A stretch of DNA of 64,000 bases from Methanoregula sp. (GCF_028679125.1 NZ_JAJRCG010000004.1:83017-147016); one strand, 5' to 3'. Shown: positions 5,191-52,799, numbered from the stretch's first letter. Program-made: numbers and translations. The notes: generated by a model from the sequence alone, not told the origin.

Positions 5191-5392
5191 AACCCTGATG
5201 AAAAATTTTCAAACAGACCTTGACTGAAATTGTTAGTTCTCTGCAATTGATCATTTCGTATGGAGATACACCCCGAGGCTATGCCCCCGCCGGTGTGGCG
5301 CCCCCGGTTGAGATGGTGCTGCATTATCTGTTTCTGGTGCCATCGCCCATGCGCCCCATCCCCCTTGGAGGATTGGTGGCGCAAGAGGGGGG
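5191..5392 (+). repeat. Dispersed structured repeat, copy E (left AT-rich segment plus hairpin core)
   Basis: AACCCTGATGAAA...CAGACCTTGA left segment is shared with 50365-50406. Core is CCCCCGGTTGAGATG...CATCGC..GCGCC-hairpin-GGCGCAAGAGGGGGG. Confidence 0.85.
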
Positions 5393-5416
5393 TCTCCCGC
5401 GAATTTTTTTGAACGG

Positions 5417-5706
5417 GTGGGGGGGTCTGCACGATTTGAAACGCAAAGGGGAGGGGGGGTATGCCGGACACCCCCCTCCCCAAAAATGGGATGTACGCAT
5501 TATTGCACACGTTTTTTTGAGGGGTATTTTGCAGGTCTCCGACGGATCAGGTCATTTTCCGGCTACCCGAAAATGATCATGGGGGGGTATGATCCAGCCA
5601 AAGGGGGGGAGGGGTATGCCGGATACCCCCCCACCCCCAGGCAGGGGGGTCTGATCGTTTTGAAAACCGGAAGGTGGGGGGGTATCAGGCAGACCCCCCC
5701 CATCCC
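5417..5706. repeat. Three imperfect tandem G/C-rich hairpin units (G-run GTATGCCGGA[C/T]A C-run)
   Basis: GGGGAGGGGGGGTATGCCGGACACCCCCCTCCCC (5448-5481), GGGGTATGCCGGATACCCC (5611-5629) and GTGGGGGGGGTATCAGGCAGACCCCCCCCA (~5673-5702). Confidence 0.75.
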
Positions 5707-5728
5707 GCGGGCACAGAGCCGGCCGGTT

Positions 5729-6160
5729 TTACGCGTTCTGCCCGGTAAGGGAACCCATGACCTGTTCCATGGTCACCGGCAGGGTTTTGGAAAACGGAAC
5801 CGACCAGGAAAAAAAGATACAATCGATGACGGCCGTCCCCGTGATCGTGACCTTCACGCTCCCCCGGGTCACGAAGGCAGCGAGCGCCCCGATGAGAATT
5901 GCATTGTCCGAACTGACCGGGACGTGAACAAGGGTACTGTCCCGGGCAGGTATCTTCACCCGGCCGGTTTTTCCGGAAGCGATCTGACGGGATCGCTCCG
6001 CGTCCCGGCACAGCACCTTAAACGGCAGGTCGCGCAGGGTCACGCCAAGGGGATTGGGATTCTGCACCCGGATTGCCACATCGAGTTCAAGGGACGAGAT
6101 TGACAGGGAACAGAGCCGCACGTCTTCAAGGCTGACTTCCGGTTCGTGCAGGAGAGGCAT
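5729..6160 (-). CDS. LEA type 2 (WHy) family protein
   Basis: EPEVSLEDVRL...ELDVAIRVQNPNPLGVTL is the LEA_2 signature. Confidence 0.85.
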   Translation of the reverse strand: MPLLHEPEVSLEDVRLCSLSISSLELDVAIRVQNPNPLGVTLRDLPFKVLCRDAERSRQIASGKTGRVKIPARDSTLVHVPVSSDNAILIGALAAFVTRGSVKVTITGTAVIDCIFFSWSVPFSKTLPVTMEQVMGSLTGQNA

Positions 6161-6208
6161 TGTAAGAACATTTCACGAACCGGTTGAAAATCCTGCTTAT
6201 CAGTTCTG

Positions 6209-6508
6209 TTATTTCCGGCTCCGGAGCTCTTTTTCAGCTGCTGCAAGCCCCGCTGCAGCCTGCTCGTCCGTCATCTCCGGATTCTTGAACCGGGTGAACC
6301 GATCGCAGACAAGCTCGGGACATTTCCCGCAGTGGGGGAGTTTCTTCATGGTCGTGCAGCATTCGTAAATCGGGCACTGGTCGATATTCACAAATGCTGT
6401 CCAGAATGGTTTCCCCGTTACCTTTTCACAGCCAGGGCAGTCCTTCTTATGGTGGTCGCAGTCGCTGCACGAGAACCCGCATACGGTCTCAATCTTTTTC
6501 TTTGCCAT
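6209..6508 (-). CDS. Small Cys-rich protein (DUF3795-like)
   Basis: VCGFSCSDC..CPGC..CPIYECC..CGKC..C pattern. The upstream part of the 6209..6913 ORF looks non-coding. Confidence 0.8.
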   Translation of the reverse strand: MAKKKIETVCGFSCSDCDHHKKDCPGCEKVTGKPFWTAFVNIDQCPIYECCTTMKKLPHCGKCPELVCDRFTRFKNPEMTDEQAAAGLAAAEKELRSRK

Positions 6509-6854
6509 AGTCAAAGGTTTCCTGCCCTTAGGGATAAAGAGAGGGGACGGGCACCGCGAAAGTGAACGTTTTGTCCCCCGTTCTTCTCTCTCATCCCTCG
6601 TCATGGCACGTGCCAGTACTGAGAATGCAGGTTCTTCCCCGGTCTTTCCCTCACTATCATCTCCTGTTGTTCTCTGCCAGGGGAATAGTGAACACCTGCC
6701 CTCATGTGATTCTGGAACCTGCAGAGCACTCCCGGCCTCTTCAAAGGCAGGTTGGAAAAAACAGCCGTGTTTTTTTCCAACTTCCCGCTCATTATATACC
6801 TCCGGGATCAACCACGTGATCAGGCCCGGAACCGCCGGGCAGGATGGAGTAACC

Positions 6855-6998
6855 ATGAGCGAACAACCGTTCCACCAGAGATTCAGCAAAAGAGAGAAAT
6901 CTTCCCGGCACAATCCCGGAAACGATAACGGGAACCTGTCCCTGTCCGCATTATGGGAACTCTATCATGCTGATCCGTCATCGCACTACCGGCCTTGA
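6855..6998 (+). CDS. Possible 47-aa hypothetical protein
   Basis: ATG preceded by GGAG, with TTATATA ~60 nt upstream; no recognisable motif. Confidence 0.3.
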   Translation: MSEQPFHQRFSKREKSSRHNPGNDNGNLSLSALWELYHADPSSHYRP

Positions 6999-7191
6999 CG
7001 GATCGCCTCCTCAGTTATGCGAATGAAACCATCATACATCATCAGAACGATCAGCAGGAAACCGGCCGAACGACCGGGGCGGGAATTACCCCCTCCCCGC
7101 CGCCCCTCTTTTCAGTCTACGCGATAACCGCCTGGCTGGTGTGTTACCAACCACAAAGCACTCAATCCCCCCGCCCAAAATTTTTCCTGCA

Positions 7192-7938
7192 ATGACTCTG
7201 GATCCATTCTTTTACCAGATATTCGAGTCTCTCCCCCGGCAGGGACCGGGATGTCCTGAAGCGACAAGGAACGTATGGTCTTGTCTTCCCCCGCTCCCCA
7301 ACCATGCAAACATCCTCGATGTCGGATGCGGCTCCGGCACCCAGACCCGCGACCTTGCGGCCCTGACAAGCGGCACCATCACCGCTGTGGACAACCACCA
7401 GCCATTCCTTGACCGCATCACCGCATGGGCAACGGCAAACCATCTGGGCGGGCGCATCAGGACACGGGCGGCATCCATGGACGCCCTGCCGTTCGAGCCG
7501 GGACAGTTCGATCTCATCTGGTCCGAAGGTGCAATTTTCATCATGGGTTTTGAGGAGGGACTCCGGGCCTGGAAACCGTTCGTGAAGAAAGGCGGGTATA
7601 TGGTAGTCTCCGATGCCGCCTGGTTTGAACCAAATCCTCCCGCAGAATTGATGCGGTGGTGGGAGAAGGAGGGGTACATTCCCAAAACAGAGGATGCATT
7701 AAGAGAGCAGGTAAAGAACACCGGGCTCCGTCTCATTGCCACGTACCGGCTTCCTGAGGCCGGGTGGTGGGAGAACTACTATGTCCCGATGCTTGCCCGG
7801 GTTGCCGAGCTCAGAAAGACCCACGGGACCGATCCTGCATGTGCTGCCGTTCTCGATCCCCTCCAGGAAGAGATTGAGATGTACCGGCAGTACAAACGGT
7901 ATTACGGGTACACATTCTTCGTGATGCAGAACGAGTAA
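7192..7938 (+). CDS. Class I SAM-dependent methyltransferase
   Basis: ILDVGCGSG motif I; FDLIWSEGAI. Confidence 0.92.
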   Translation: MTLDPFFYQIFESLPRQGPGCPEATRNVWSCLPPLPNHANILDVGCGSGTQTRDLAALTSGTITAVDNHQPFLDRITAWATANHLGGRIRTRAASMDALPFEPGQFDLIWSEGAIFIMGFEEGLRAWKPFVKKGGYMVVSDAAWFEPNPPAELMRWWEKEGYIPKTEDALREQVKNTGLRLIATYRLPEAGWWENYYVPMLARVAELRKTHGTDPACAAVLDPLQEEIEMYRQYKRYYGYTFFVMQNE

Positions 7939-7958
7939 CACTTGGGAGGCAGTTCCTG

Positions 7959-8687
7959 ATGTCCAAGGAAATTGACAAACAGATCCGGTCTCTTGCCGGT
8001 TCACTTGACGCTGATTACTATGGTGTGGCGGATCTCACCCCGGCCCGCGACTTCATTCATGCGCAGGGAGGGGATCGGGCAGCGAGGTATCCGCGGGGAG
8101 TTGTGCTGGGGATACGGTTGCAGGACAGCGTTGTGGATCTCCTGCCGGAGAAAGACAACGAGGGAGCAATCCTGTACCGTCACACTACGTACGATGTTGT
8201 CAACATCGCCCTCGATCAGGCAGCGCTCCGGATCGCAAATGTTCTCCAGCGCGAAGGCTACGGGGCATTTCCCGTCCCCGCGTCGAAGCGGACGAGCAAC
8301 GAGCACATCTGCGGGATCTTCTCCCAGAAACTCGCGGCACACATGGCCGGGCTTGGCTGGATCGGGAAGAGCTGCCTGCTCGTGACTCCGGATCATGGTC
8401 CGAGAGTCCGGTGGGTCACGGTCCTGACCGATGCGCCGCTCCAGCCGACCGGGTCCCCGATGGAATCGCGGTGCGGGGAATGCACGGCATGTGTCGATAT
8501 CTGCCCGGTGCATGCATTTACCGGCAAACCGTTCTCGCCCGGAGAGCCCCGCGAGGCCCGGTTCGATGCTGCGGCCTGCGACCGCTATTTTAAGGAGCGT
8601 GAGAAGAATGACGGTGTCGCAACCTGCGGGCTGTGCGTGTGGGTCTGCCCGCACGGGAGAAAGAAGGGGAAGAGAGCGGAAAAATAA
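7959..8687 (+). CDS. QueG/reductive-dehalogenase-like protein with 2x[4Fe-4S] domain
   Basis: AGLGWIGKSCLLVTPDHGPRVRW, CGECTACVDICP and CGLCVWVCP. Confidence 0.85.
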   Translation: MSKEIDKQIRSLAGSLDADYYGVADLTPARDFIHAQGGDRAARYPRGVVLGIRLQDSVVDLLPEKDNEGAILYRHTTYDVVNIALDQAALRIANVLQREGYGAFPVPASKRTSNEHICGIFSQKLAAHMAGLGWIGKSCLLVTPDHGPRVRWVTVLTDAPLQPTGSPMESRCGECTACVDICPVHAFTGKPFSPGEPREARFDAAACDRYFKEREKNDGVATCGLCVWVCPHGRKKGKRAEK

Positions 8688-8893
8688 CCTGCCTGGAAAT
8701 GGGGGAATCCCTCTCTTTTAATGCTCCAGGGGGCTTCACTGGCGCTTCACCTTCCGCGATAGAAGAACGCTCGCGGGTTCCTCTCATCCCAGAGCCCTCT
8801 CCCTGATTCAATCAGTTCACATCACCGATGAGACCGGGCTCCCTTCGTTCCCCATCCGTTATGTAATAAATTCACCGATACATAGGAATTATT

Positions 8894-9598
8894 CTACTCA
8901 ATGTGATTGTGTAACCAGTGAGTAAAAAATTTTAATTGTTCATCGGTATGAAAGTAATGTTCTCCGGTTTCCAGAATCTCTAATGTACAATGAAATTTTT
9001 CTGCAAAATGGCTGATTGTATCAAATTCACACAAATTATCGTTAGCTCCGTATAAAATATTCGTATCAACTTCCCATGTATCAACAGGGTGTTCTTTCAC
9101 ATAACAGAAATAATCCCAATATAACTTTTGACCAACAGGGGTAGATATCGTTCTTTCTTCCTGTAAACGCTCAGGTGTTACATCAAACCACACCATCATA
9201 TTGCTTATAATCCGGTCCATGTCAACCACCGGTGACAAGAAAAGGGCTTTTTTCAATTCAAGATTGTGATAGGCTAAAAGGCTGAAATATGCTCCCATAC
9301 TGCATGCAAACAGGCTCAGCTCTTTCCACTGAGTTCTTGCATATTCCAAAATTTCCATCAGATTACTAACGCAAATTTGCACCTTACAAGGTGTCTTCTC
9401 CTCTTTTCTTTCGCCATGTTCTGGCAAATCAAAGCTCAGGACCTGATACCCTTTTTGAATTGCCTCATGAGCGAGAAGTTGAATAACTGCATCTTCCTTA
9501 TGGGATAAATTCCCATGTACTGCAATTACAAGTTTTTCACTCTCTTTTCCCCATAACGTCGCAGGGATATTTCCAATCTTAAAATTATATTTAATCAT
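8894..9598 (-). CDS. Alpha/beta hydrolase, AT-rich (likely horizontally acquired)
   Basis: VHGN oxyanion region, nucleophile elbow ACSMG, C-terminal GEHYFH; visibly lower GC than the flanks. Confidence 0.85.
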   Translation of the reverse strand: MIKYNFKIGNIPATLWGKESEKLVIAVHGNLSHKEDAVIQLLAHEAIQKGYQVLSFDLPEHGERKEEKTPCKVQICVSNLMEILEYARTQWKELSLFACSMGAYFSLLAYHNLELKKALFLSPVVDMDRIISNMMVWFDVTPERLQEERTISTPVGQKLYWDYFCYVKEHPVDTWEVDTNILYGANDNLCEFDTISHFAEKFHCTLEILETGEHYFHTDEQLKFFTHWLHNHIE

Positions 9599-9669
9599 TT
9601 TCTTCCATTATTTACGTGGTATACCTATCGTAAAACAGGGTGTAAAAAATAAGGACGACAATTCCGGTT

Positions 9670-10071
9670 TTACTTCTTTGCCAGCTTCAGGATCCGGATC
9701 GCCAGCCACGCCGCGTTGTCGCCATTGTCCACGCCAACGCAGGCAACCGGCACACCTTTGGGCATCTGGGCGATCGAGAGCAGCGCGTCCATCCCGTTCA
9801 GCGTCCCGCTCACGGGAACCCCGATGACCGGCTTGTCGGTCCGCGAGGCGATAACACCGGGAAGCGCTGCGGAGAGGCCGGCGATCGCAATGAAGATCTT
9901 CGCGTGGCTCGCCCTGACATAGGCCTCGAGCTTGTCGGGATCGCGGTGGGCAGAGAGGATCTGGGCATCGTAGGTGACCTTGTTCGCGTCGAGAACTTTC
10001 TTCACCTTATCGGTGATTGCCGCGTCAGACGCGGATCCGGAAATAATTGCTATATCTGCCATATCTGCCAT
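9670..10071 (-). CDS. purE: AIR carboxylase / N5-CAIR mutase
   Basis: [33 protein letters not shown]. Alternative start at 10062. Confidence 0.95.
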
Positions 10072-10118
10072 CCAAACTTATATTGCGTCTATATTAAAAT
10101 ACTATGAGCAGATTCACC

Positions 10119-11707
<1,589 letters not shown>

Positions 11708-11751
11708 GAAGAACGCAAGAATTATTGACCAATCACAAGAGATGATCTGAT

Positions 11752-12171
11752 ATGTGTGATACCAACCCGATAAAACTGGGATTCGTTGTCGCCGAGTTCA
11801 ACCGCGACATCACCTACATGATGGAGATTGAAGGCCGCGAACATGCAGCATTCCTTGGTGCAGAAGTCATCGAGACCATGTATGTTCCCGGGGCATACGA
11901 CATGCCGCTCGCGATCAAGAAACTGCTGACTGCCGGCAAGGTCGATGCGGTTGTCACCATCGGCTGCGTCATCGAGGGCGCAACCCAGCACGACGAGATC
12001 GTGGTGCAGCACGCAGCCCGGAAGATTATCGACCTCTCGCTGGAGTTCGGCAAGCCGGTCTCCCTCGGCATCTCCGGGCCCGGCATGACCCGGCTCGAAG
12101 CCAACGAGCGGATCGATTACGCAAAGCGGGCCGTTGAGTCAGCCATCAAGATGGTCAAACGATTGAGATGA
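11752..12171 (+). CDS. ribH: 6,7-dimethyl-8-ribityllumazine synthase
   Basis: [27 protein letters not shown]. Confidence 0.95.
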
Positions 12172-13301
12172 AGCCCCTGTCGGCGAAGATTGCCGGCGTT
12201 GCCGAGTCGGCAACGATCGCCATCTCCAACAAGGCAAAGAAGATGCAGCGGGAGGGCATCGATGTCATCAGCCTCTCGATCGGTGAGCCGGACTTCGATA
12301 CTCCCCGGCATATCACGGATGCCTGCATTACGGCGCTGAACCGGGGCGAGACGCATTACGCCCCGAGCAACGGCATTCCGGAACTGACGGGTGCAATCGC
12401 TGAGAAGATAACAAAGGAGAACAAGTTCCCCTGCACTCCTCAGCAGGTGATCGTTGCCTGCGGCGCAAAGGATGCGATCTACGAGGCGTGCGAGGCGGTC
12501 TTAAACCCGGGTGACGAGACGATCATCCTCACCCCGGCCTGGGTCTCCTACGAGCCCTGCATCCAGATCGCGGGCGGGAAGCCGGTCTTCCACGCGATCA
12601 ATCCCAAAACCTTCCAGCTCGACGACTCGCTTCTTGAGCGTGTGAACAGGAAGACCAAGATGATCATCGTCAACTCCCCGTCGAACCCCACGGGGGCTGT
12701 TTTTAATAAAAAGTCCATGCAGCTCGTGGCGGATCTCTGCGAGGACAGGGACATCTACGCGATGTCGGACGAAATCTACGAGAAGATGGTGTACGGCAAG
12801 GAGCACATCTCGCTTGCTTCTCTCGGCGACATGGCGCAGCGGACCATCACCATCAACGGCTTCTCGAAGGCCTATGCGATGACCGGCTGGCGGCTCGGGT
12901 ACGCGGTGGGTCCGAAGGAGATCATCACGGAGATGTCCAAGGTCCAGCAGCACTCCGTCAGCCAGGCAACGACCTTTGCGATGTGGGGAGCTGTGGCGGC
13001 GCTCAAGGGCGACCAGCGTTGCGTTGAGGAGATGCGGAAGGAGTTCGACCGCCGGCGCATATACATGATAAACGAACTTAACGCGATGGGCTACGAGACG
13101 GCCCCGGCCGAGGGTGCGTTCTATGCCTTCGTGAAGGTCAAGGGTGACGATATGGAAGTTGCGTCACGCTGGCTTGACAAAGGTCACGTGGCAGCAACCC
13201 CGGGCAGTGCGTTCTATGCGCCGGGATGGATCCGGTTGTCGTACGCGGCTTCGATGGAGAAGCTGAAAGAGGCGATGAAGAGGATCAAGAGGGTTGGGTA
13301 A
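12168..13301 (+). CDS. Class I/II PLP aminotransferase (aspartate aminotransferase-like)
   Basis: [35 protein letters not shown]. Confidence 0.95.
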
Positions 13302-13364
13302 TCTTTTTTTTAATCAATCAATATTACAACACAAAATAAATTACCTGCAAGGTTTATTGCAATA

Positions 13365-14543
13365 TTGGTGGAAGTTATCAAATTTTATTCAGATGATGAC
13401 TATTTTGAAAGAATTCATGAGATACGTGCAATTATTGAAAATGAGATTGGATTAACTCAAAATTATATCTCAATCGTTCATTACAGCAATGTTGAAATTA
13501 TCGCATTGATTTTGGGAATATTGGCGATAGTAACTTATTTTTCATTTAATACATTTGCGATCATTTGGGTCGTAATAGGTCCCTATGCAATTTATAAGAC
13601 TCTTCAGATCAATTCAGGAATGGAAAGTCTAAAATTAAAACTTGGTTTTAGGAAAATTGAAAAAAAGAAAAAAATCAGCTTCAAAGAAAATTTTGTTATT
13701 GATATCCCTGATCGCTATCCAAAATTTTCTGATATCGACTTATTAGCACTAAAAATCCGTATTGTAAAAGGGGATAGAACAAGTGATAGTAAAATTAACG
13801 CAACTAATAATTATCTTTGGGCAAGCGCCTTTTCAATGAACGCTTTTAACAATCAAATCGGGTATTGGACAATCTATGCATCCATTATTGTTCTCTACAT
13901 CTATTGTGTTTTAACAAAAACAATAGAATTTAATTGGTTTCTAATTCTCTTTGGAATCCTTCAATTAGGCTCTTTTTATTATCTAACTGCTTTGGAAGGG
14001 AATCTTAGATATTTTGTGATAAATGATTTTAAACGCAATTTCTTATTTTTTCATATTCTATGGATTGGCTCAATAACTGCATACTATGTGGTCTTTTTGA
14101 TCAGTTACTTTTCACTGATTCTTCAACTTCTGACAGTTCATAATATTTTACTTCTTGGGATGGTGGGGATTTTAGAATATTTTGTTATTATGTTAGGAAA
14201 TGATTTTTTTTCTTCTACTATCGGATCTGGAATAATGAATGACAAATTAACCGAGCTTATCAGACTCCGTGATACAATTAACAATCAAATTTTCACTCGA
14301 AAGAGGTTAACTGATGATCCTGACATCTTCTATTATGATTATTTAGTCATGAGAAGATACAAACTGATAAAATGGAAGGGACTCCTTTTCGGAAAATATG
14401 TACTTGAGCCGGATTTATCAGATGATGATATCAGAACGCTTTCAGAATCATCATTACATTTTGAAATATTACAAGGTGAAGTTGGAATGAAGGGATTATT
14501 TGTTACAAATAAAGAAATTTTAAAGCGGTATGGATACGTGTAA
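13365..14543 (+). CDS. Hypothetical polytopic membrane protein, strongly AT-rich
   Basis: 392-codon ORF (TTG start) in very AT-rich DNA where stop codons would be frequent by chance; multiple hydrophobic stretches; no recognisable motif. Confidence 0.75.
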   Translation: MVEVIKFYSDDDYFERIHEIRAIIENEIGLTQNYISIVHYSNVEIIALILGILAIVTYFSFNTFAIIWVVIGPYAIYKTLQINSGMESLKLKLGFRKIEKKKKISFKENFVIDIPDRYPKFSDIDLLALKIRIVKGDRTSDSKINATNNYLWASAFSMNAFNNQIGYWTIYASIIVLYIYCVLTKTIEFNWFLILFGILQLGSFYYLTALEGNLRYFVINDFKRNFLFFHILWIGSITAYYVVFLISYFSLILQLLTVHNILLLGMVGILEYFVIMLGNDFFSSTIGSGIMNDKLTELIRLRDTINNQIFTRKRLTDDPDIFYYDYLVMRRYKLIKWKGLLFGKYVLEPDLSDDDIRTLSESSLHFEILQGEVGMKGLFVTNKEILKRYGYV

Positions 14544-14594
14544 AATCTTTTTTTAGAAAAAAATGATGGACACGGCCAAAATGTGAAACGATGT

Positions 14595-14630
14595 CCCCCC
14601 TCTTGCGCCCCCTCCGGGAGGGTGACAAGT
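14595..14630 (-). repeat. Partial (3') copy of the dispersed structured repeat
   Basis: 14595-14609 is the reverse complement of GGCGCAAGAGGGGGG, identical to 5378-5392 and 43441-43455. Confidence 0.7.
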
Positions 14631-14886
14631 ACGGGTCCCCCTCAAAACCCACCTCCCGCTGCCCGATCGCAGGCGACTTTCTGCGCCCAATTGATGCTAA
14701 TTAAACATTTCAGAGTCTCCGACGTTTAAAAATCAGTCCGGGCATTTTGCGGGAGGGAATCCGGGCTCATTGTACCGTTTTTCACCCAATTCGATCTGTT
14801 TTCGGGTGCCCGAAATCCGGGGCCCGGAAAAAGTCGGCAATATGGGCTCTGATCGGCAATCCGGGCGTAATATGGGGGGTCGCCCC

Positions 14887-15402: not shown

Positions 15403-15624
15403 GCCCGGCCTCCGGTCCCGGCCGGAATTTTTCGCAGCGGCAGGTGTTTATCTGCTGAACAATTTTTGTATTGTGCCTGATTGATGCGGAGTATGGCAAC
15501 AGCTCCTTCTTGTTGTAAATATGCCGGCTGCAATTCCATGAGTACACGGGCCGGCCACGCTGTTATTGTAAAAATTATTTTTAAAATTATATATGCTTTT
15601 TAGTATGGGGAACTGCGTCACACG

Positions 15625-34049: not shown

Positions 34050-34106
34050 TCCCCCGCAAATCTTTTTTTCTCCGAAGAAATCATCCGGAACGATCTGATA
34101 TATCAG

Positions 34107-34209
34107 GGACATCTCCCGTTGCGATGACGAGGAATTACCGGTGCCCTGTCACGGAGCATCGCACTGCGCCCCGTCTCCCCCGGGGACTGGTGGCGTAAAA
34201 TAGGGGGTC
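34107..34209 (+). repeat. Dispersed structured repeat, copy A (lacks the 5' hairpin)
   Basis: GGACATCTCCCGTTGCGATG...CATCGCA.CTGCGCCCCGTC..GGGGACTGGTGGCGT..GGGGG. Confidence 0.85.
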
Positions 34210-34253
34210 GTATACAAAGGGAAAAATGTTTTTCAAAACCGCACTTTTTTATT

Positions 34254-37438: not shown

Positions 37439-37441
37439 TTT

Positions 37442-42631: not shown

Positions 42632-42985
42632 AGGAACAATGGGATCGTTTGCCCGGATTTTTTTGAAATTTTTTCCGGTTTTTAGATTTTCAACCGGGCT
42701 CTTTGAGAAATAAAAAATTCGGACAGATGATTCTGGAAATGTTTTTTGGTGCCGGGATTTTCCGGAGGTGCCTGAACCCTGTTTGCAGATCCAAGGCAGG
42801 ACCCCGGATGGATCCCCTCCGGGTGGGTTCAGCCCCCCTTCCCCGACAGGGTTTACCGTCGGAGAACCTTCTCCCGGGGAGTACCTCTCCTGCCCAATAC
42901 CCATGTTTTTCAAATCTGGCTCTTTTTGCCAAACAGAGTCCATTTTAACCGAATTTATCCGGCCCCTGAAATTTAGGGTAACCGA

Positions 42986-43089
42986 AAAACTTCGTAATTC
43001 ACCTAAAACACCCTGCTAATTCATTTTAAATCGCGCTATACTCGCCCGGATTCCAAATTTTTACGCCGGAGGGGCAAAACTTCGTAATT
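42986..43089 (+). repeat. 14-bp direct repeat AAAACTTCGTAATT x2
   Basis: Exact copies at 42986-42999 and 43076-43089. Confidence 0.7.
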
Positions 43090-43233
43090 AGACCCTGTGT
43101 AATTCCACGATCAGGGAGGGGAATGAGGTAAAACACGTGTTACGGGAAGGTGGATCGGTGGATCCGGAGTGATCCGTGATCCTGGACGATCGTGCAGAAA
43201 TCCGTTATAAAAAAAACCGGGACTTAAAAAAAA

Positions 43234-43548
43234 GGTGATTAGGTAAAGTCCACCAAAAGTGCTATAAACCTGAAACAAAATTTTCATTACCGCTCTTGGG
43301 GGCTCCGGCAAGCCTCCGCCCCCGCCGCTCGGACATCCCCCGGTTGCGATAGTGCCGTATAACCTGTACCTGTGTGTGCCCCCAATTAAGGTAATGCCGA
43401 GGCATCGCTAATAGCGCCCCGTCCCCCTCGGGGGACTGGCGGCGCAAGAGGGGGGCTGTATTTTTGTGTTCTCTGGAGCGCAAATCTAAAAAAACCTGAA
43501 TTGGCTCAATACTAACCATGGGTTAGTGGTGGACTTTACCTAACCACT
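43234..43548. mobile_element. MITE-like element, 315 bp, with 22-bp imperfect terminal inverted repeats
   Basis: 43234-43255 GGTGATTAGGTAAAGTCCACCA versus the reverse complement of 43527-43548, AGTGGTTAGGTAAAGTCCACCA (20/22, inner 17 perfect); A8 run on the left and A7 on the right; no ORF. Confidence 0.6.
43298..43455 (+). repeat. Dispersed structured repeat, copy B
   Basis: GGGGGC..GCCCCC hairpin; GGACATCCCCCGGTTGCGAT...ATCGC; GCGCCCCGTCCCCC-TC-GGGGGACTGGCGGCGCAAGAGGGGGG. Confidence 0.88.
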
Positions 43549-43588
43549 AAAAAAATATTTCAAAAAATCCGGACTGCCGGACAGGATC

Positions 43589-45055: not shown

Positions 45056-46680
45056 TGCTTCCCCTCCCGGATCTCGATTCCTTCACGTGCACGTGACAGG
45101 AACGTATGGCCGAAGGGCGAGTGCTCCGCATCATGGGTCTGGACGATATCGGTGCGGACGTGCGCCCCCCGGGACTCGGTGCGGAGCAGGGCGGCCCGGC
45201 AGATGAGCGAGGCGGTGAGGCACATGTTCTCCAGGATGCAGCACTCTGCAAGGTTCCGTGGCGATGCCGCCCTGATGCGGGAGGGGGCGAGCTGCTTTAC
45301 CAGTGCCAGCGTCTTTTCGAGATCGCCCGCGTTCCGGAAGATGCCGGCGCCTTCCCACATGGCGAGCTGGAGTTTCTTTCTGACCTGCGACGGGTTGATG
45401 GTGCCCGCGAGGAACCGGTTCAGCCGGTCCTGCTGTGCATCGACCTGCTGCTGGTCCACGATCTTCTTCCGCGGTGCGGCTTTCCCTGCCGACTCCCCGG
45501 CCCGTTTCCCGAAGACCTGCGTCTCGGCCAGGGCATTGCCGCCGAGCCGGTTGGCGCCATGCACGCTGCCGGATACTTCCCCGCAGGCAAAGAGCCCGGG
45601 CAGGGTAGTCCTGCACTCAGACGTGATCCGGAGGCCGCCCATGATGTGGTGGGCCGTGGGGGCCACTTCCATGGGGGTCGTGCGGATGTCCACGCCGAAC
45701 TTTTTGAACTGTTCGAGCATCACCGGGAGGCGGCTCTCGATCTGCTCGCGGGGCAGGTGCGTGACATCGAGGTATACCCCGCCATTCGGCGTTCCCCTCC
45801 CCTTGAGGATCTCGGTGGCGATCGCCCGTGCCACCACATCGCGGGTGGAGAGTTCCATCCGGGCCGGGTCATAGGTCTTCATGAACCGCTCGCCGTTCAC
45901 GTTCTTGAGAACCCCGCCTTCGCCCCGGACCGCCTCGGTCACGAGCCGTCCCCGGGCATCGTAGGGCTGTATCGCGCCGGTCGGGTGGAACTGGACCATC
46001 TCCATGTCGATCAGTTCCGCGCCGGCCCGGTAGCCCATCGCGTACCCGTCGCCCGTACCGCTCGACGAGTTGGTGGAGATATCGTAGACTTTTGTCCCCC
46101 CGCCCGTTGCAAGGATCGTGCTGTCCGCTTTGAGGAGGACAAGGCGGCCCTTCTCGTCCAGCGCCATGGCCCCGATGACCGCATCGCCATCTTTCAGCAG
46201 GTCGATGACCGTGTATTCCTGGAGGGTCTCGACATCCGTTGCAGCGAGACGGTCAACAAGCGTCATCATCATCTCGTGGCCGGTCCGGTCGCCCGCATAA
46301 CAGGTCCGGGGGAACCGCTGGCCCCCGAACGGGCGCTGGGCAACTTCATCAGCATCCGTGAAATCGAAGACCGCACCCCACTTCACGAGATCGCCCATGC
46401 GCAGGGGCGCTTCTTTCGTCAGGATGTCCACGAGCTCCGGGTCGTTGAGGTATGCTCCGCCTTTCAGCGTGTCCTCGTAATGGCCCCCGCACGAGTCCAG
46501 TTCCCGCAGGACCGCGTTGTATCCGCCTTCCGCCATCGTGGTGCACCCTCCCTTCCCCACGATGGTCTTGGAGATGAGGACGGTCTTTCCAAACTGCGAC
46601 GCCTCGATCGCTGCGCGGACGCCTGCACCTCCGCTCCCGATCACGAGCACGTGGCAGTCACAAACCTCATCTGCAAGCAT
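45052..46680 (-). CDS. tfrA: Thiol:fumarate reductase (CoM/CoB) subunit A
   Basis: IGSGGAG FAD motif, QFHPTG, TEAVRGEGG, HHIMGG, HGANRLGGN. Confidence 0.95.
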   Translation of the reverse strand: MLADEVCDCHVLVIGSGGAGVRAAIEASQFGKTVLISKTIVGKGGCTTMAEGGYNAVLRELDSCGGHYEDTLKGGAYLNDPELVDILTKEAPLRMGDLVKWGAVFDFTDADEVAQRPFGGQRFPRTCYAGDRTGHEMMMTLVDRLAATDVETLQEYTVIDLLKDGDAVIGAMALDEKGRLVLLKADSTILATGGGTKVYDISTNSSSGTGDGYAMGYRAGAELIDMEMVQFHPTGAIQPYDARGRLVTEAVRGEGGVLKNVNGERFMKTYDPARMELSTRDVVARAIATEILKGRGTPNGGVYLDVTHLPREQIESRLPVMLEQFKKFGVDIRTTPMEVAPTAHHIMGGLRITSECRTTLPGLFACGEVSGSVHGANRLGGNALAETQVFGKRAGESAGKAAPRKKIVDQQQVDAQQDRLNRFLAGTINPSQVRKKLQLAMWEGAGIFRNAGDLEKTLALVKQLAPSRIRAASPRNLAECCILENMCLTASLICRAALLRTESRGAHVRTDIVQTHDAEHSPFGHTFLSRAREGIEIREGKQ

Positions 46681-46754
46681 CTTATTATTTTGTGGTCGTA
46701 TAGGTACATAAATAAATGGCACGTCAATTGGCACGGCCGAAAGTGAGAGTGAGC

Positions 46755-48155
46755 ATGAAATATCTGATGAAGTTCGGTGGGACATCGGTTGCCGATGCCC
46801 AGTGTATCCAGCGTGTTGTCGATATCCTGGAGAAACACCGCAAAGCAGGAGACGAACTCGCCGTTGTCGTTTCGGCACAGCGTGGCGTGACCGACCAGCT
46901 CATCGCGGTCGCGACCGCCCTTCCCACCGCAAAGGACAACTCCGCCATCGCCCCCCTGATCCAGTCGCTTTCCAAGCGCCACATCACGACCCTCGAAGGG
47001 GCAGCCCCCGATTACGTTGCAGAGGTCGGGGCGGATATGGAGGAGCACCTCATCAGGCTCCAGAACATCCTCAATGCGATCTACAACCTGCGGGAACTCA
47101 CTCCCCGCTCGAAGGACTATATCATCTCGTTCGGCGAACGGCTCCTCGCCCCCATCCTCTCGGCCGCCCTGCGCCAGCGGGGTATCCCCTCGTCCGTGAT
47201 GGACGGGTGCGAAGCCGGCATCCTCACCACCGCACAGCACGGGGAGTCAACGTCCCTTCCGGACAGCGACGAGCGGATCAAGCGCCGTGTCGGCCCCCTG
47301 CTCGGGAAGGAGATCCCGGTGATCATGGGGTTCATGGGCTGCACCCGGGACGGGATCCTCACCACGCTCGGCAGGAGCGGCTCGGACTACTCCGCCTCCA
47401 TCATCGGCGCGGGAATCGATGCGGACGAGATCTGGATCTGGACCGATGTGGACGGGATCATGACCTGCGACCCCCGGGTGATCAACGATGCCCGCGTGAT
47501 GACCTCGCTCTCGTACCTGGAGGTGATGGAGCTCTCGTACTTCGGTGCGAAGGTGATGCACCCCCGCTCGATCGAGCCGGCAATGCGGAAGAACATCCTG
47601 GTCCGAGTCAAGAACACCTTCAACCCCACCCACCCGGGCACGGTGATCGTAAAGAACGGCAAGCGGGACAACCGCGTAGTCAAGGCCCTCACGTACATCG
47701 ACAAGGTCTCGGCGATCAACATCAACGGCGCCCAGATGATCGGCAGGCCCGGCGTGGCAAAAGCGATCTTCACGATCCTTGCCGACAACGAGGTGAACGT
47801 GCTGATGATCTCGCAGGGTTCGAGCGAGGCGAACATCTCGCTGATCGTTGACGAGACCCATGTCGCTGCCGCGGTAAAAGCTCTCGAAGAGCTGAAGAAG
47901 AAGTGCGTTGTCCGCGAAGTCTCGCACAACAATGATGTCTGTGCGGTCGCCGTGGTCGGGGCCGGTATGGCAGGGGCGCCTGGCACCGGTGGGCGAATCT
48001 TTACGGCACTCGGGAAAGCGGGTGTCAACGTGATGATGATCTCTCAAGGGTCGAGCGAAGCGAACATCTCGTTTGTCGTGAGCCAGAACGACGGCCCGCG
48101 GGCGGTCCGGGTGCTCCACGACGAGTTCCATCTCTCGGAGGAAAGCGATGAGTAA
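46755..48155 (+). CDS. lysC: Aspartate kinase
   Basis: MKFGGTSV, TLGRSGSDYSA, WTDVDG, two ACT domains. Confidence 0.96.
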   Translation: MKYLMKFGGTSVADAQCIQRVVDILEKHRKAGDELAVVVSAQRGVTDQLIAVATALPTAKDNSAIAPLIQSLSKRHITTLEGAAPDYVAEVGADMEEHLIRLQNILNAIYNLRELTPRSKDYIISFGERLLAPILSAALRQRGIPSSVMDGCEAGILTTAQHGESTSLPDSDERIKRRVGPLLGKEIPVIMGFMGCTRDGILTTLGRSGSDYSASIIGAGIDADEIWIWTDVDGIMTCDPRVINDARVMTSLSYLEVMELSYFGAKVMHPRSIEPAMRKNILVRVKNTFNPTHPGTVIVKNGKRDNRVVKALTYIDKVSAININGAQMIGRPGVAKAIFTILADNEVNVLMISQGSSEANISLIVDETHVAAAVKALEELKKKCVVREVSHNNDVCAVAVVGAGMAGAPGTGGRIFTALGKAGVNVMMISQGSSEANISFVVSQNDGPRAVRVLHDEFHLSEESDE

Positions 48156-49197
48156 GACCATGGCAAAGAAACCTGCTGCAAAGAAAATGCCGGTAAAGAG
48201 ACCGGCAGCGAAGAGCGCCTATGCCCGGGCCGGTGTGGATATCGATCTCGAAGCAACGGCGATCAGGGCCCTGATAAAGAACCTCAGCTACAGGCGGAAG
48301 GGGAAGGCGAAGATGATGGGCGCGGTCGGCCACTTCGCCGGCCTGATAGATTTCGGGGAGCAGGCCCTTGCCCTGACCACGGACGGCGTGGGCACGAAGA
48401 TGCTCGTTGCCGATCAGCAGCAGGACTGGAGCACGGTCGGGATCGACTGCATTGCGATGAACGTGAACGATCTCTACGTGATGAACGTAGAGCCGATCGC
48501 GTTTGTCGACTACATTGCGACCGACAAGCTCTCCATCGACAAGATGGCCCAGATCGGGATCGGGCTGAACGAGGGCGCAAAGCAGGCGAACATCGATATC
48601 GTTGGCGGGGAGACCGCGTCCCTCAGGGGGCTCGTGAACGGCCTCGACCTTGCCGGCACCTGTTTCGGGATGCAGAAGAAGGATAAGATCATTTCTGGCG
48701 ACAAGATCAAGCCCGGAGAGAAGATCATCGGCGTCCCGTCAACGGGTGTTCACAGCAACGGCCTCTCGCTCGCCCGGAGTGTTGTCGAGAAGTACGCGGG
48801 CTACGACAAGAAGTTTGTGGGAAAGAAGACCTTCGGGCAGGAACTCCTCACCCCGACCCGGATCTATGCCGAGAGCCTGAAGGTCGCAGCGACCTGCACG
48901 GTGCACGGCATGTGCCATGTCACCGGTGGCGGGCTGCTCAACTTCAACCGGCTCAGCAAGCACGGGTTCCGGTTCGATTCGCCCATCACCCCGCCCGCCA
49001 TCTTCGGCTGGATCCAGAAGGCCGGGGATATTTCTGCGGTCGAGATGTACCGCACCTTCAACATGGGCATGGGGTATGCGTATGTGGTGCCGAAAGCGAG
49101 TGTGGCGTGCGTGCTGAAGATGGTGCCCGGAGCTCAGATAGTTGGGGAAGTCGTGAAGGAGCCCGGGGCGTTTTTGGGCGATCTTGAGATAACATAA
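48148..49197 (+). CDS. purM: Phosphoribosylformylglycinamidine cyclo-ligase
   Basis: YARAGVD, TDGVGTK, GGETA, STGVHSNG, TFNMG. Confidence 0.97.
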   Translation: MSKTMAKKPAAKKMPVKRPAAKSAYARAGVDIDLEATAIRALIKNLSYRRKGKAKMMGAVGHFAGLIDFGEQALALTTDGVGTKMLVADQQQDWSTVGIDCIAMNVNDLYVMNVEPIAFVDYIATDKLSIDKMAQIGIGLNEGAKQANIDIVGGETASLRGLVNGLDLAGTCFGMQKKDKIISGDKIKPGEKIIGVPSTGVHSNGLSLARSVVEKYAGYDKKFVGKKTFGQELLTPTRIYAESLKVAATCTVHGMCHVTGGGLLNFNRLSKHGFRFDSPITPPAIFGWIQKAGDISAVEMYRTFNMGMGYAYVVPKASVACVLKMVPGAQIVGEVVKEPGAFLGDLEIT

Positions 49198-49308
49198 CCG
49201 AACGATCTTTTTTTAATCCCTTTTGGTATACTGCGTGGACCCGGCCGAAGGAGGCAACTCTTCAGATCGCAACGAATTCATACGAGAAACGAGAGAAGAT
49301 TCTCACTC

Positions 49309-49797
49309 ATGGTAGAATTTTCCCCGGTCAAGGACACCGATCTGGCAGCGATCCTGGAGATCTATAATCACTATATCCTGAATTCAACCGCGACATTTCA
49401 CAGCGAGAAATTGTCCAGAAAAGATCTGAAAGAATTTCTCTTCATCTCCCATCCGAAATATCCATCATTTCTGATAAAGGATAATGACGAGACGATCGGG
49501 TATTGTTTTTTGACCCAGTACAAAAAGCGGCAGTCATACGACCGGTCTGCTGAACTGAGTATCTACCTGAAACCGGAATTCACCGGCAAAGGTATCGGCC
49601 CGGCTGCCCTGGGCCATCTTGAGGCAGCCGCAAAAAAGGCCGACATTCATGTGCTGGTCGGGACCATCTGCGGGGAAAACCAAGCAAGTATCCGGCTGAT
49701 GGAAAGGGCCGGCTTTTCGAAGTGTGCCCACCTGAAAAACATCGGTGAAAAATTCGGAAAGGTTCTCGATGTCGTGGTGTACCAGAAAGAGATCTGA
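49309..49797 (+). CDS. GNAT N-acetyltransferase (YncA/Pat-like)
   Basis: EIYNHYI..TATF, SIYLKPEFTGKGIG, KFGKVLDV. Confidence 0.9.
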   Translation: MVEFSPVKDTDLAAILEIYNHYILNSTATFHSEKLSRKDLKEFLFISHPKYPSFLIKDNDETIGYCFLTQYKKRQSYDRSAELSIYLKPEFTGKGIGPAALGHLEAAAKKADIHVLVGTICGENQASIRLMERAGFSKCAHLKNIGEKFGKVLDVVVYQKEI

Positions 49798-49817
49798 ATT
49801 CCCATTAATTGAGAAAA

Positions 49818-50228
49818 TTATTTTCCGGTCCTTGTTTTCCCTGCTTCATCCGCCACAACCCCAGCCGCGATCACCATGGCCGGAATTACAAGATATCTCA
49901 AACCGATCTGCGCTGCATAATCCGGCAGCGTCATCCCCAGCAGCCCGACGAGCACGATCAGATCCAGCACCCAGTTGGCGAGCAGCCAGACCATGCCGGT
50001 GACAACCGCCTCGCGTGTGTAATTCTTTTCAACCGGCCGGAAGCACCAGATGATCAGGATCGCGGCCGTGATCGATCCGACCACGATCATCAGCGACTTG
50101 AAGAGCTGTTGGTCGATGAGCAGCCCGTCTTTTCCATAGAACGGGATGGCGCAGACGAACGGGATGAGCCAGGTCAGGAAGGCGCCGATGAGACGGCGGC
50201 GCCAGATCGTATCGAATGTGAATGACAA
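49818..50228 (-). CDS. Small 4-TM hypothetical membrane protein
   Basis: Four hydrophobic segments and GC-rich codon usage. Confidence 0.7.
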   Translation of the reverse strand: MSFTFDTIWRRRLIGAFLTWLIPFVCAIPFYGKDGLLIDQQLFKSLMIVVGSITAAILIIWCFRPVEKNYTREAVVTGMVWLLANWVLDLIVLVGLLGMTLPDYAAQIGLRYLVIPAMVIAAGVVADEAGKTRTGK

Positions 50229-50325
50229 GAGGAAACACCTGTGCTCAATTTCTCACCCTGCCGGACGATGAAGATGGAGGATTCGATCCGGAGCAATCGG
50301 ATCGTTGTTGAAAATTTTTCATTAC

Positions 50326-50598
50326 GATCACGATGGCAATTGAAAATTTTTTCCGGATCGATCGAACCCTGATGAAATTTTTTTCAGCAGACTTTGATGA
50401 AAATTTTCGGTCGGATCTCGATGTGCCATTCAAAAAGATCTTTGACGCTCCCGGGGCCTTTGCCCCCGCCGCGTGGGCGTCCCCCGGTTGCGATGATGCC
50501 GCATTACCCGGATACCATTTTGTAAAATATACGGAACAGGTAATTCCGGGACATCGCAAGCGCCCACGCCCCCTCGGGGCGGGCTGGCGCAAGGGGGG
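50326..50598 (+). repeat. Dispersed structured repeat, copy C (left segment plus core)
   Basis: Left segment GATCAC..ATTGAAAAT..CCGG..ACCCTGATGAAA; core GGGGC-CTTT-GCCCC, TTGCGATG/CATCGCAA and GCGCC..GGCGC AAGGGGGG. Confidence 0.88.
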
Positions 50599-50755
50599 CG
50601 GATCTCCCTCGAAAGAATCTCCCACCGTCGAAAGACCCGATCCGGACCCCCTGTTTCTGTCCGAAATCAAGACCCCGGTCCATCCTAGCCTGAGTTATGC
50701 CCCTGTATTAGCGCTATTTGCGGATCATTTTTTACGACGTGAAAATGGTGAAAAA

Positions 50756-50816
50756 AGGGTACTTAGTCCCTCATTTTTCCGAATTAGGCCCTCATTTTAG
50801 GGTACTTAGTCCCTCA
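50756..50816 (+). repeat. 18-bp direct repeat AGGGTACTTAGTCCCTCA x2 with a partial copy between
   Basis: Exact copies at 50756-50773 and 50799-50816; TTAGGCCCTCATTTT at 50784-50798. Confidence 0.8.
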
Positions 50817-51359
50817 CCTCTTTTCGGCAGGGGGATTCTCCGACGGTGATTCTCCAGAACAAAGGGGTGGGGATGCACCCTCTGAAAGGGGTATTTCTAC
50901 CGACGGTGGGATCATGCCTCTGTCGGATCCCCCGACCCCGGTTCCCTCCCCTCCATTCCGGGTAACCGGTACTTCAGCTGTACCGGCATTCCCGTTAGCC
51001 GGGCCGGCAGTTCCCGGCTCACCGCTCTGCTGGATCTCTTCGAGCCCCGCAGTGGTCAACCGGAAGAAGCGGTAGGTCCCGTGCTTGGAGTAGACCCAGA
51101 GTTCCAGCCGGATCTGTTGCGATGGCGGGAACAGCCGGAGCTCGGCAATCATCCTGCGGCACACGAACTCGATCTCGCTCGCCGGCGCAACAATCTTTTC
51201 AATGCGCATGACCCGGACAAAGATCACGAGCATCACGGCCCGGATAAAAAAATCGCAGACACTGTCATGAGCGTACGTGACCCGCATTACGCAGCCGCGT
51301 TTCCGTGCAATCGCGACAGCATCATTGATGCCCCGCGTTGCCGGCCGGCCGCGGTTCAT
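50814..51359 (-). CDS. Hypothetical protein, putative Hjc/PD-(D/E)XK-like fold; paralog of 14887..15402
   Basis: 38/113 ungapped identities to the 14887..15402 product; CDFFI then VIFVRVMR; Gly/Pro-rich tail. Confidence 0.8.
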   Translation of the reverse strand: MNRGRPATRGINDAVAIARKRGCVMRVTYAHDSVCDFFIRAVMLVIFVRVMRIEKIVAPASEIEFVCRRMIAELRLFPPSQQIRLELWVYSKHGTYRFFRLTTAGLEEIQQSGEPGTAGPANGNAGTAEVPVTRNGGEGTGVGGSDRGMIPPSVEIPLSEGASPPLCSGESPSENPPAEKR

Positions 51360-51515
51360 GGATGGGGCCTCTGTGGTTTGCTGGTGTTGATCATGGGGAG
51401 TGCTCCTGTGACGGGTGGCTGCGTGAATCAGTGATCGTGCCGGAAAATTTCATTGTGAGCGTAAGATATTGTATTATTTATTTTCGTAAGATAGATTTGG
51501 TTGGATCAATAACGT

Positions 51516-51567
51516 GATCAGAATCGCGATTGAAAATGTGAGCCGGTTTTACCAGACCTTGATGAAA
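51516..51567 (+). repeat. Isolated left segment of the dispersed repeat
   Basis: Ungapped match to 50326-50377, about 37/52 nt (GATCA..AT.GC.ATTGAAAAT.....CCGG.........ACC.TGATGAAA). Confidence 0.7.
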
Positions 51568-51624
51568 GATTTGAGCGGCGGAGGTGAAGTTCGAGAGGGT
51601 GTAAAAAATATTTGAATATTTCAA

Positions 51625-52479
51625 TCACTTATTTTGTTCTAATAAAAATCCAAGAGACAATCCTAACGTTTCAGATAATCCACCATTGACTAATTGAAAG
51701 AAAAACATTTTCTCTCTTCCATCTTTCTGAATTTCAACTCCATTATCATAGCAATTATAAGAAATAATTTTATTAAGTGGGATATTGGTTCCCTTTTGGC
51801 CGATAACCGGATGAAAAATTAATCTGGTATTTGTTAAAATTAGGTGTCCTCTTGATTTTTCGACTAATCTATCTTCTTTAACCATATGTCCTCGATAAGC
51901 CCCCACGCGATAACTTACTCCTTTTGCTACACGGAAAGAAAATCCATGTGATCCGCCAACATATCCAAGGTTAACAGATTTCATCTCTTTCCAAAAGGCA
52001 GTTGTAGCAAAATGTGCGGTCTCATTTTTCTTCAATACAATGGAGGCTGAATCTCCTTCAAAATGGACTACTGGGAGCTTTCCTTCATTTCGAATCATGT
52101 AAACATATTGATATGGGAGAATACGTTCATCATACTTGACATCCTCATTTGACAGATTCAATTGTTTTTGATAAGTGATCAGAGATTCAAGTTCGCCTTT
52201 GTCCAATTCTTTATCATTAGAAAAATTTTCCCATATTTCAGAAAAAATGCGTATTTGATCAGATTTGTGTGATTTCTTTAAAAAATCCATTTCAGGATCG
52301 GTAAGCGTTTTAGTATCAATAATTGTGTTTTTGATTCTAGTCAAATCACTCTGATATTGTGCTTCAATTTTTGCCCGTTCCGCTTTTTCTTTTGCCAAAC
52401 AGGTATCACAAAGTTCTCTTCTTGAGAATCGTTGAAAAAAAGAAAATGGTGTACCACAATTTTTACAGAAGTTTGACAT
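51625..52479 (-). CDS. AT-rich hypothetical protein: N-terminal Zn ribbon, C-terminal PH-like domain (inferred)
   Basis: CKNC..CDTC; GGSHGFSFRVAKGVSYRVG..GHLILTNTRLIF..IPLNKI; low GC. Confidence 0.8.
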   Translation of the reverse strand: MSNFCKNCGTPFSFFQRFSRRELCDTCLAKEKAERAKIEAQYQSDLTRIKNTIIDTKTLTDPEMDFLKKSHKSDQIRIFSEIWENFSNDKELDKGELESLITYQKQLNLSNEDVKYDERILPYQYVYMIRNEGKLPVVHFEGDSASIVLKKNETAHFATTAFWKEMKSVNLGYVGGSHGFSFRVAKGVSYRVGAYRGHMVKEDRLVEKSRGHLILTNTRLIFHPVIGQKGTNIPLNKIISYNCYDNGVEIQKDGREKMFFFQLVNGGLSETLGLSLGFLLEQNK

Positions 52480-52634
52480 TTCTAAACCTCTATTTATTAT
52501 AATGTCTAATTTTGATTGATGCTATAATATTTTTACTAATTTTATCGCAATCCCGTTAGAATCACAAATTGTGAGTAAAATTGCTCTCGCAATAGACGCG
52601 GCTAAAAATTTTAAGGGGATGTATTACGTTCTTT

Positions 52635-52799
52635 GGGGCTCCGTGCTGCTACACCCCCGCTGCGTAGGCATCCCCCGCGTTGCGATGACCCAGTCTTACC
52701 AGAACATATCATTCATAGGATGTGTTCTTGTTCTCTCACTCCGAGGCATCGCAACTGTGCCCCGTCCCCCAACGGGGGATTAGTGGCACAAGAAGGGGG
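52635..52799 (+). repeat. Dispersed structured repeat, copy D
   Basis: GTTGCGATG (52679-87) and CATCGCAAC (52747-55) form a perfect 9-bp IR; outer stem GTGCC/GGCAC; AAGAAGGGGG. Confidence 0.88.

Follow-up and report, generated by a model that had tools for sequence, protein, structure and literature searches.

A folded, GC-rich repeat of Methanoregula is very probably the core of miniature transposable elements mobilised by an IS5-family transposase

What is a folded, GC-rich repeat doing between the genes of a methanogen? A 64,000-nucleotide stretch of a Methanoregula sp. genome (hereafter the window; C4:83017-147016 of genome G000, 2.67 Mb in 33 contigs) carries five copies and one 3' fragment of such a module, 140-190 nt long. 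An earlier note on this stretch had described it as a dispersed intergenic element with covarying stems and a fixed orientation towards gene ends, and had proposed that selection acts on a single-stranded structure, as in repetitive extragenic palindromes or the ends of IS200/IS605-type elements. [quoted passage not shown] On this account its nature is ordinary: it is a known kind of mobile DNA and no new RNA system.

The repeat family is real and lies far beyond chance. All five copies and the minus-strand fragment listed in the earlier note, whose copy letters were not in coordinate order, were located. Allowing up to two mismatches, the 15-mer GGCGCAAGAGGGGGG occurs five times in the window, including 14595-14609 on the minus strand, against a chance expectation of 0.34, and none of 100 shuffles reached five. 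A profile hidden Markov model built from the five copies returned 34 matches (E<1e-5) in the 2.67-Mb genome, and a covariance model, R1 (173 positions, 35 pairs), returned 47 at E<=0.01, placing the copy number at ~35-47. R1 also found matches in 36 of the 36 other Methanoregula genomes searched; copy number among them ranges from 1 to at least 45, with near-identical bursts. Outside the genus, R1 matches were weak and limited to three genomes, all from a single further family. When one genome per prokaryote species was scanned for an exact pattern, the matches listed were all in metagenome-assembled genomes (MAGs) labelled Methanoregula, Methanoregulaceae or Methanomicrobiales. Genomes with one or two copies, such as G020 (2,542,943 bp in one contig; two copies), hold decayed MITEs, and a master gene at a conserved locus was rejected on these grounds. 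Screening the whole window against Rfam 15 at the gathering threshold yielded a tRNA as the sole match, and single copies searched at E<=10 yielded nothing relevant. The literature searched held no description of this family and likewise no Methanoregula MITE. The family is genuine and apparently undescribed, in keeping with the earlier remark that it was not recognised as a named family.

The flanks suggest how the module travels. Extending 14 near-identical copies by 600 nt on both sides defined a unit, TIR1, in which similarity continues past the core and breaks off sharply at a left end, GGTGATTGTGTAACATCCACC, and a right end, GGTGGACTTTACCTAATCACC. Both ends are 21-bp terminal inverted repeats (GGTGATT...AATCACC) flanked by 8-bp A/T-rich direct repeats, for example AAAGAAAA and AAATAAAA. 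The same repeat set, GGTGATTGT...AATCACC, bounds window Copy C, which has ~13 near-identical relatives in the genome, with 8-bp A/T-rich duplications. A second layout emerged from G032 (MAG MFD02961 bin34), a relative with at least 45 copies. Its amplified unit, unlike TIR1, consists in order of TGCTCTGTAGAAA, ~20 nt, the core, A8 and TTTCTACAGAGCA, with duplications of 7-8 bp. Pairs of these 13-bp repeats (TIR2; TGCTCTGTAGAAA) are present in the window's own genome too, where they enclose two 1-kb elements with an open reading frame (ORF), several core-less 335-bp MITEs and one core-bearing 240-bp MITE (C5:1052-1291); they also occur at contig ends. Features of the window and the related elements are collected in Table 1.

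Table 1 Coordinates of repeat copies and associated mobile elements. Plain numbers are window positions; numbers after a prefix are contig positions.
Feature	Position	Strand	Remarks
Copy A, decayed TIR2-type MITE	5236..5392	+	R1 105.8 bits; profile match
Copy A, left inverted-repeat remnant GTTCTCTGCAATTGATCATTTCG	5236-5258		by-eye reading against TGCTCTGTAGAAATCATTTCG of TIR2 MITEs
Copy A, core	~5262-5392		first hairpin altered
Core 3' fragment	14595..14630	-	GGCGCAAGAGGGGGG, exact 15-mer, plus a few further bases
Copy B, 5'-truncated core without first hairpin	34107..34212	+	R1 85.6 bits; profile match
Copy C, complete TIR1-type MITE	43226..43555	+	repeat unit 43234-43548
Copy C, target duplications	43226-43233; 43549-43555		A8; A7
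Copy C, inverted repeats	43234-43254; 43528-43548		GGTGATTAGGTAAAGTCCACC; GGTGGACTTTACCTAACCACT
Copy C, core	~43290-43456		
Copy D	50444..50630	+	R1 134.2 bits; CGCCCC/GGGGCG subfamily
Copy D, core	50444-50604		GACGCTCC ... GGGGGGCGGATC
Copy D, right arm TCTCCCTCGAAAGAATCTCCCAC			resembles TIR2-MITE right arm by eye; left arm not recognisable
Copy E, decayed TIR2-type MITE	52582..52827	+	R1 124.3 bits
Copy E, left remnant TGCTCTCGCAATA	52582-52594		
Copy E, right remnant TTTCTCCACTCA	near 52815-52827		
Copy E, core	52626-52803		GTGCC/GGCAC pairing
1-kb IS5-family insertion sequences (assigned by ORF domains)	C2:5719-6723; C3:136163-137160		TGCTCTGTAGAAA ends; 8-bp duplications; ORFs of 315-323 aa
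335-bp MITEs with TIR2 ends	C3:44142-44477; C3:91118-91450; C3:111138-111471; C9:30202-30536		
IS110 element, ends at contig ends	C4:1-119; C1:1-119; C15:62046-62165; C28:23269-23379; C15:1-111; C8:132112-132222		
IS110 element, full	L190:1-1629		1,629-bp contig, same metagenome

The 1-kb elements are assigned to the IS5 family by the predicted protein, which matches PF01609 DDE_Tnp_1 (5e-16) and carries DUF772 upstream. The genome holds this transposase gene in two intact and several broken versions, and the insertion sequence itself is without the core. Counting these insertion sequences, 20 of 29 distinct TIR2-bounded elements across genomes are flanked by an 8-bp duplication (at least 7 of 8 positions matching), and 2 more by a 7-bp duplication. 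In relatives, 106 non-redundant core copies were assessed: TIR2 (up to three mismatches) lies at one end or more of 53 of them, and at both ends of 31; its distance to the core is almost always ~33-41 nt. In another MAG, a burst of many TIR1-like MITEs (GGTGATTGT...AATCACC ends) carries the same core with different arms. Different backbones resemble each other only within the core, roughly between CTCTTGGGGG and AAGAGGGGGGC. The MITEs measure 196-336 bp, and ORFs that cross them are chance frames only. In the window, each of the two Copy E remnants agrees with the TIR2 consensus at 8 of 13 positions by eye. Judged against these units, the element ends drawn in the earlier note were too narrow, and its flanking repeats and duplications had been missed for all but one copy. 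The core-less 335-bp MITEs have a GC-rich palindromic interior of their own, GGCGGGGGTCGGGCGGTGTACTT ... AAGTACACCGCCAGACCCCCCC.

These observations suggest the following route. The main vehicle is a 200-260-bp element made of TGCTCTGTAGAAA, an arm of ~20-35 nt, the 140-190-nt core, an arm of ~25-35 nt (often with an A-run) and the second inverted repeat, probably mobilised in trans by the ~315-aa DDE transposase of the 1-kb IS5-family elements that end in the same repeats. On insertion, an A/T-rich target of 8 bp is duplicated; most archaeal targets of this kind are the oligo-T terminator spacers behind genes, which would explain why copies are intergenic, lie close to stop codons and are nearly absent from divergent promoter spacers; selection after insertion may further purge copies from promoters. 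In some lineages, including that of the window copy at 43234-43548, the core sits between the TIR1 repeats (GGTGATTGT...AATCACC), probably as a nested composite that was then amplified. The core's flanks inside the TIR1 unit weakly resemble TIR2 ends by eye, which makes it probable that the TIR1 element is a composite with an older TIR2 MITE inside. Old copies would lose their inverted repeats and come to look free-standing. Lineages that remain active may keep the fold because they need it in cis, for example if DNA folding back joined the ends of the very short element for the transposase.

The fold itself agrees with the earlier description. From 5' to 3', the module comprises a hairpin, a C-run, a TTGCGATG...CATCGCA arm, a nested GCGCC/GGCGC and GTCCCCC/GGGGGAC hairpin, and AAGAGGGGGG; our alignment and folds bear out this shared architecture. 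In the alignment, the 5' hairpin is GGGGGC/GCCCCC, which the copy at 34107 lacks and the one at 5260 has in altered form, and a conserved GCCGC(G/T)..GGGCAT stretch separates it from the C-run. TTGCGAT(G) and CATCGCA enclose the variable part of the arm, and the nested hairpin reads in full GCGCC-CC-GTCCCCC ... GGGGGAC-TGGT-GGCGC. Single-sequence folds concurred on the 5' hairpin and a three-way junction, in which a C-run/G-run helix encloses a long arm, conserved at its base and variable at its tip, together with the two-part GC hairpin. The compensatory changes reported before exist: GTGCC/GGCAC at 52635, CGCCCC/GGGGCG at 50440 and A-T for G-C at 5260.

Pairing was then counted over 111 copies from many genomes, aligned to R1, a model-fitted alignment that is biased in favour of structure. 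Paired cells made up 83-86%, compared with 40-63% when partners were slid by 1-3 columns. Double changes affected 26-28 of 34-35 pairs, a level reached by none of 500 shuffles, with many of them shared by whole subfamilies through inheritance (for example, in the inner hairpin, the second pair changes from UA to CG). The closing of the junction by the 3' G-run and 5' C-run, suggested in the earlier note, is 86% paired, with double changes in four of five pairs. The fold is conserved among lineages. Using MAFFT and RNAalifold on 18 copies, the P4 hairpin alone was recovered, because the variable arm misaligns. Further candidate helices fared poorly: a terminal CTCTTG/CAAGAG helix was rejected because its 5' changes are uncompensated, P0 as ACGC/GCGT is only 58% paired, and P0 as CYY/GGG is 83% paired mostly through U-G, and hence weak.

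Does this conservation act on RNA? A strand-specific signal, with G-U tolerated and A-C not, is absent from helices P2 to P4b. Counts of G-U against A-C mismatches were 20:20 in P2, 17:18 in P4a, 11:8 in P4b, 24:56 at the base of P3 and 24:43 in one further helix of the P2-P4b set. With the two mismatches equally frequent, neither selection at the RNA level nor a particular folding strand is supported. The gain in folding energy over shuffles is modest, with z-scores of -2.25 for plus-strand RNA, -1.73 for minus-strand RNA and -3.87 for DNA, and of -0.84 for a MITE copy of the window. The RNA side of the earlier note's proposal of selection on a single-stranded structure thus finds no footing here, and its broader view of a multi-copy, apparently mobile element with a conserved fold is supported.

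The DNA z-score and the symmetry of G-U and A-C mismatches would fit a structure acting at the DNA level, as in REP/RAYT or IS200/IS605 elements (the latter including palindrome-associated transposable elements, PATEs), which move as single-strand DNA by a Y1 HUH transposase that recognises their hairpins. Pointing the same way are the hairpins close to either end and a T(G/T)AC that is conserved ahead of the core. The two hairpins are dissimilar, however, and Y1_Tnp (PF01797) had no match in the genome under a search in which control genomes were positive. The sole tnpB gene is truncated, and 2 kb, with another gene in between, separate it from a copy. IS200/IS605-family elements have neither terminal inverted repeats nor target duplications, whereas the copies described here carry inverted repeats, shared with IS5-family elements, and 8-bp duplications, as DDE cut-and-paste elements typically do. 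We consider mobility of this kind, which the earlier note had offered, extremely improbable. A TnpB/IscB guide-RNA scaffold was rejected as well, given the truncated tnpB and a TPR gene between it and the nearest copy.

Using gene calls from a crude codon-usage caller trained on this genome, we classified the surroundings of 83 copies from this genome and its relatives. Forty-two lay in convergent spacers (genome baseline 21%), 40 in tandem spacers (56%) and one in a divergent spacer (23%). The preference for gene 3' ends is real, and can be put down to the A/T-run targets seen in the duplications and, probably, to the loss of promoter insertions. The earlier claim that, in six of six cases, the element's 3' end faces the stop codon of an opposing gene says nothing about orientation, since at least four of the six lie in convergent spacers, where either orientation satisfies the rule. 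It is mostly a by-product of tail-to-tail insertion. Tabulating the wider set nevertheless uncovered an orientation effect of another kind: in tandem spacers, the core is antisense to the genes in 29 copies and sense in 11 (two-sided binomial p ~0.006). Among these, the antisense:sense ratio was 19:4 without intact repeats (p 0.0026) and 10:7 with them, a difference that is not significant (Fisher p 0.15).

A rival reading takes the core for a structured RNA with a function, be it a small RNA gene or a cis-acting 3'-end element, that MITEs merely spread. The host would then keep old copies for the use of the RNA or of its antisense effect on the 3' end of the adjacent gene. The antisense excess would fit such a role, as would pairing kept through double changes, the good conservation of the core where the inverted repeats have decayed (Copies D and E) and the T-runs often found 3' of the core on its own strand. 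Bacterial MITE-derived small RNAs and terminator-like MITEs exist (PMC10969869). Set against this are the mismatch counts, which mark no strand as RNA in the well-supported helices, the modest folding z-scores, and the intact and decayed copies that do not differ significantly in orientation. No shared promoter-like box at a fixed distance was found by eye, and genomes with one or two copies, G020 among them, hold decayed MITEs and no conserved single-copy gene. We regard a functional RNA as unlikely.

Somewhat less doubtful, though still improbable, is the idea that the core is a portable functional module and no passive filler. Active MITE lineages with two unrelated sets of inverted repeats would keep its fold because transposition of such very short elements needs it in cis, and after insertion it would act in a strand-dependent way at the upstream gene's 3' end, as a terminator, insulator or antisense element. 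If true, this would account for the survival of decayed copies mostly in antisense to the gene that precedes them. For the bias, survival that depends on orientation is the simplest idea.

One spacer holds copies in two genomes. Copy B lies between convergent M50 peptidase and FMN reductase genes (window 34050-34253), and relative G004 has a full copy in the same orientation in the same spacer (C1:18881-19059). In ~20 other congeners this spacer is 30-120 nt long and empty. It may be either a hot spot or the site of an old insertion that has been lost repeatedly.

A second mobile element meets the core at its 5' edge. Two core copies (C28:23268 and C15:111) have a divergent 5' flank that proved to be the end of a further repeated element, 1.62 kb long. 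This element is responsible for six contig breaks in the assembly, one of them where the contig of the window begins. It encodes a 424-aa protein with DEDD_Tnp_IS110 and Transposase_20 domains, has a ~250-nt non-coding left end, lacks terminal inverted repeats and is bordered by CT on both sides. Its junctions, GACG-CT / element / CT-CTTGG, coincide with the exact 5' edge of the core. Insertion at this edge occurred at least three times, one of them inside a TIR1 MITE, and one insertion used a core-less CTCTTGG site. Searching 40 congeners at the DNA level did not turn up the element, and its non-coding left end had no match in Rfam. A relationship between the core and this non-coding end was considered and dropped, as the two do not match. 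Homing to extragenic repeats is known among IS110-family elements, an example being IS621 in the REPs of Escherichia coli, and the insertion pattern seen here matches this habit.

That the core's 5' edge is a recombination target for the IS110-family element in at least three places raises the question of whether the core is an independent site-specific module, a recombination site or recurrent cargo, that enters MITE backbones by its own mechanism. Its identical boundaries, CTCTTGGGGG ... AAGAGGGGGGC, in three unrelated backbones could be taken the same way. Yet the analysis met no core on its own that had a clean empty counterpart, and no recombinase candidate recurs beside the copies. The backbones also have arm motifs in common (TAATCGC upstream, GATCATGCC downstream), which favours descent from one MITE followed by nesting. 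An independent module therefore seems very unlikely.

Returning to MITEs mobilised by an IS5-family transposase, several points weigh against this explanation and temper our confidence in it. An autonomous partner with TIR1 repeats was not found in this genome. Closely related genomes yielded no clean pair of filled and empty sites: most relatives have nothing in the spacer of Copy B, and these species are too diverged for a base-exact comparison. The nesting of TIR2 within TIR1, although likely, is argued from a weak by-eye similarity of ends and from homology confined to the core. The core has a GC content of 55-69% in matches (genome 55%), and MITEs are typically AT-rich (PMC10969869). The antisense bias in tandem spacers is not predicted by symmetric cut-and-paste insertion. 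Finally, the same sharply bounded core in three backbones could reflect movement or function of its own.

The neighbourhoods of the copies hold further features. An all-against-all comparison of neighbouring proteins found no protein family that accompanies the copies, bar two paralogous pairs. In the first, a gap of 20-32 nt separates the end of each 167-aa paralog (43% identity; C26:10506-11009 and C6:88145-88648) from the 3' end of a core, both cores being of the same subfamily; this looks like a joint duplication of gene and repeat. The second pair is 30% identical, with one member adjoining Copy D and the other a TIR1 copy. Three long ORFs of the window (8894-9598, minus strand; 13365-14543, plus; 51625-52479, minus) have a very low third-position GC content of 0.25-0.35, compared with 0.7-0.85 in their neighbours, and are probably foreign genes. 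Two of them adjoin core copies, and the two scanned against Pfam had no match.

Other small repeats lie close to the copies. Downstream of Copy A, a 38-nt G-run/C-run hairpin, CAAAGGGGAGGGGGGGTATGCCGGACACCCCCCTCCCC, occurs three times (5444-5481, 5599-5636 and 5669-5706), and two of the three form a 29-nt inverted pair. AT-rich stretches in which a palindromic motif, GAAAATTTT(T)C, is repeated lie upstream of Copies A and D (5187-5231 and 50300-50420) and at 51516-51567, with weak matches at C8:72968-73296, C10:32221-32461 and C22:42118. These stretches do not belong to the core family and may represent either sites bound by a protein or a further small repeat. The AT-rich left segment of Copies A and D was not accepted as part of the family, as it has few weak matches elsewhere and falls outside the repeat remnant of Copy A.

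Methanoregula is a key genus of peatland methanogens for which most genomes are MAGs; this would be its first described MITE family, and it comes with a likely autonomous partner. Recognising the family should aid annotation, help explain contig breaks and provide strain-level population markers. It also carries a caution, in that a cut-and-paste element landing in terminator spacers can produce stems that covary as well as a seeming orientation rule.

How does the family compare with known systems? The putative 1-kb partner resembles the ISH1-like subgroup of IS5 in its length of ~1 kb, single ~315-aa ORF, DDE_Tnp_1 (PF01609) and DUF772 domains, short repeats and 8-bp duplications, a tentative assignment made from these features. 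The archaeal ISH1 subgroup makes duplications of this length. REPs, bacterial interspersed mosaic elements and the IS200/IS605-derived PATEs are likewise dispersed, intergenic and palindromic, often lie behind genes, and in some cases serve as IS110-family targets. REPs are 20-40 nt long and PATEs lack repeats and duplications, both depending on Y1 transposases, whereas the Methanoregula element spans 200-330 bp, has both repeats and duplications, and comes without a Y1 gene. The 1.62-kb IS110 element, like IS621-like members of its family, always occupies the same point within a repeat.

The closest likeness is to prokaryotic MITEs, among them Sulfolobus SM1-SM4, the Haloquadratum and Halobacterium MITEs, the Neisseria Correia elements and Coxiella QMITE2, which we compared using the general features given in a review (PMC10969869). 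The Methanoregula elements are similarly short, non-coding and multi-copy, and have terminal inverted repeats in common with an autonomous insertion sequence of the same genome (here TIR2). They further share target duplications, intergenic A/T-rich targets, a strongly folding interior and mutual insertion. Where the interior of such MITEs is typically AT-rich (PMC10969869) and forms a single long hairpin from the inverted repeats, here it is GC-rich and forms a three-way junction, and one interior lies between two unrelated sets of inverted repeats. It is this combination, together with the mostly antisense placement of old tandem copies, that makes the Methanoregula family unusual among MITEs.

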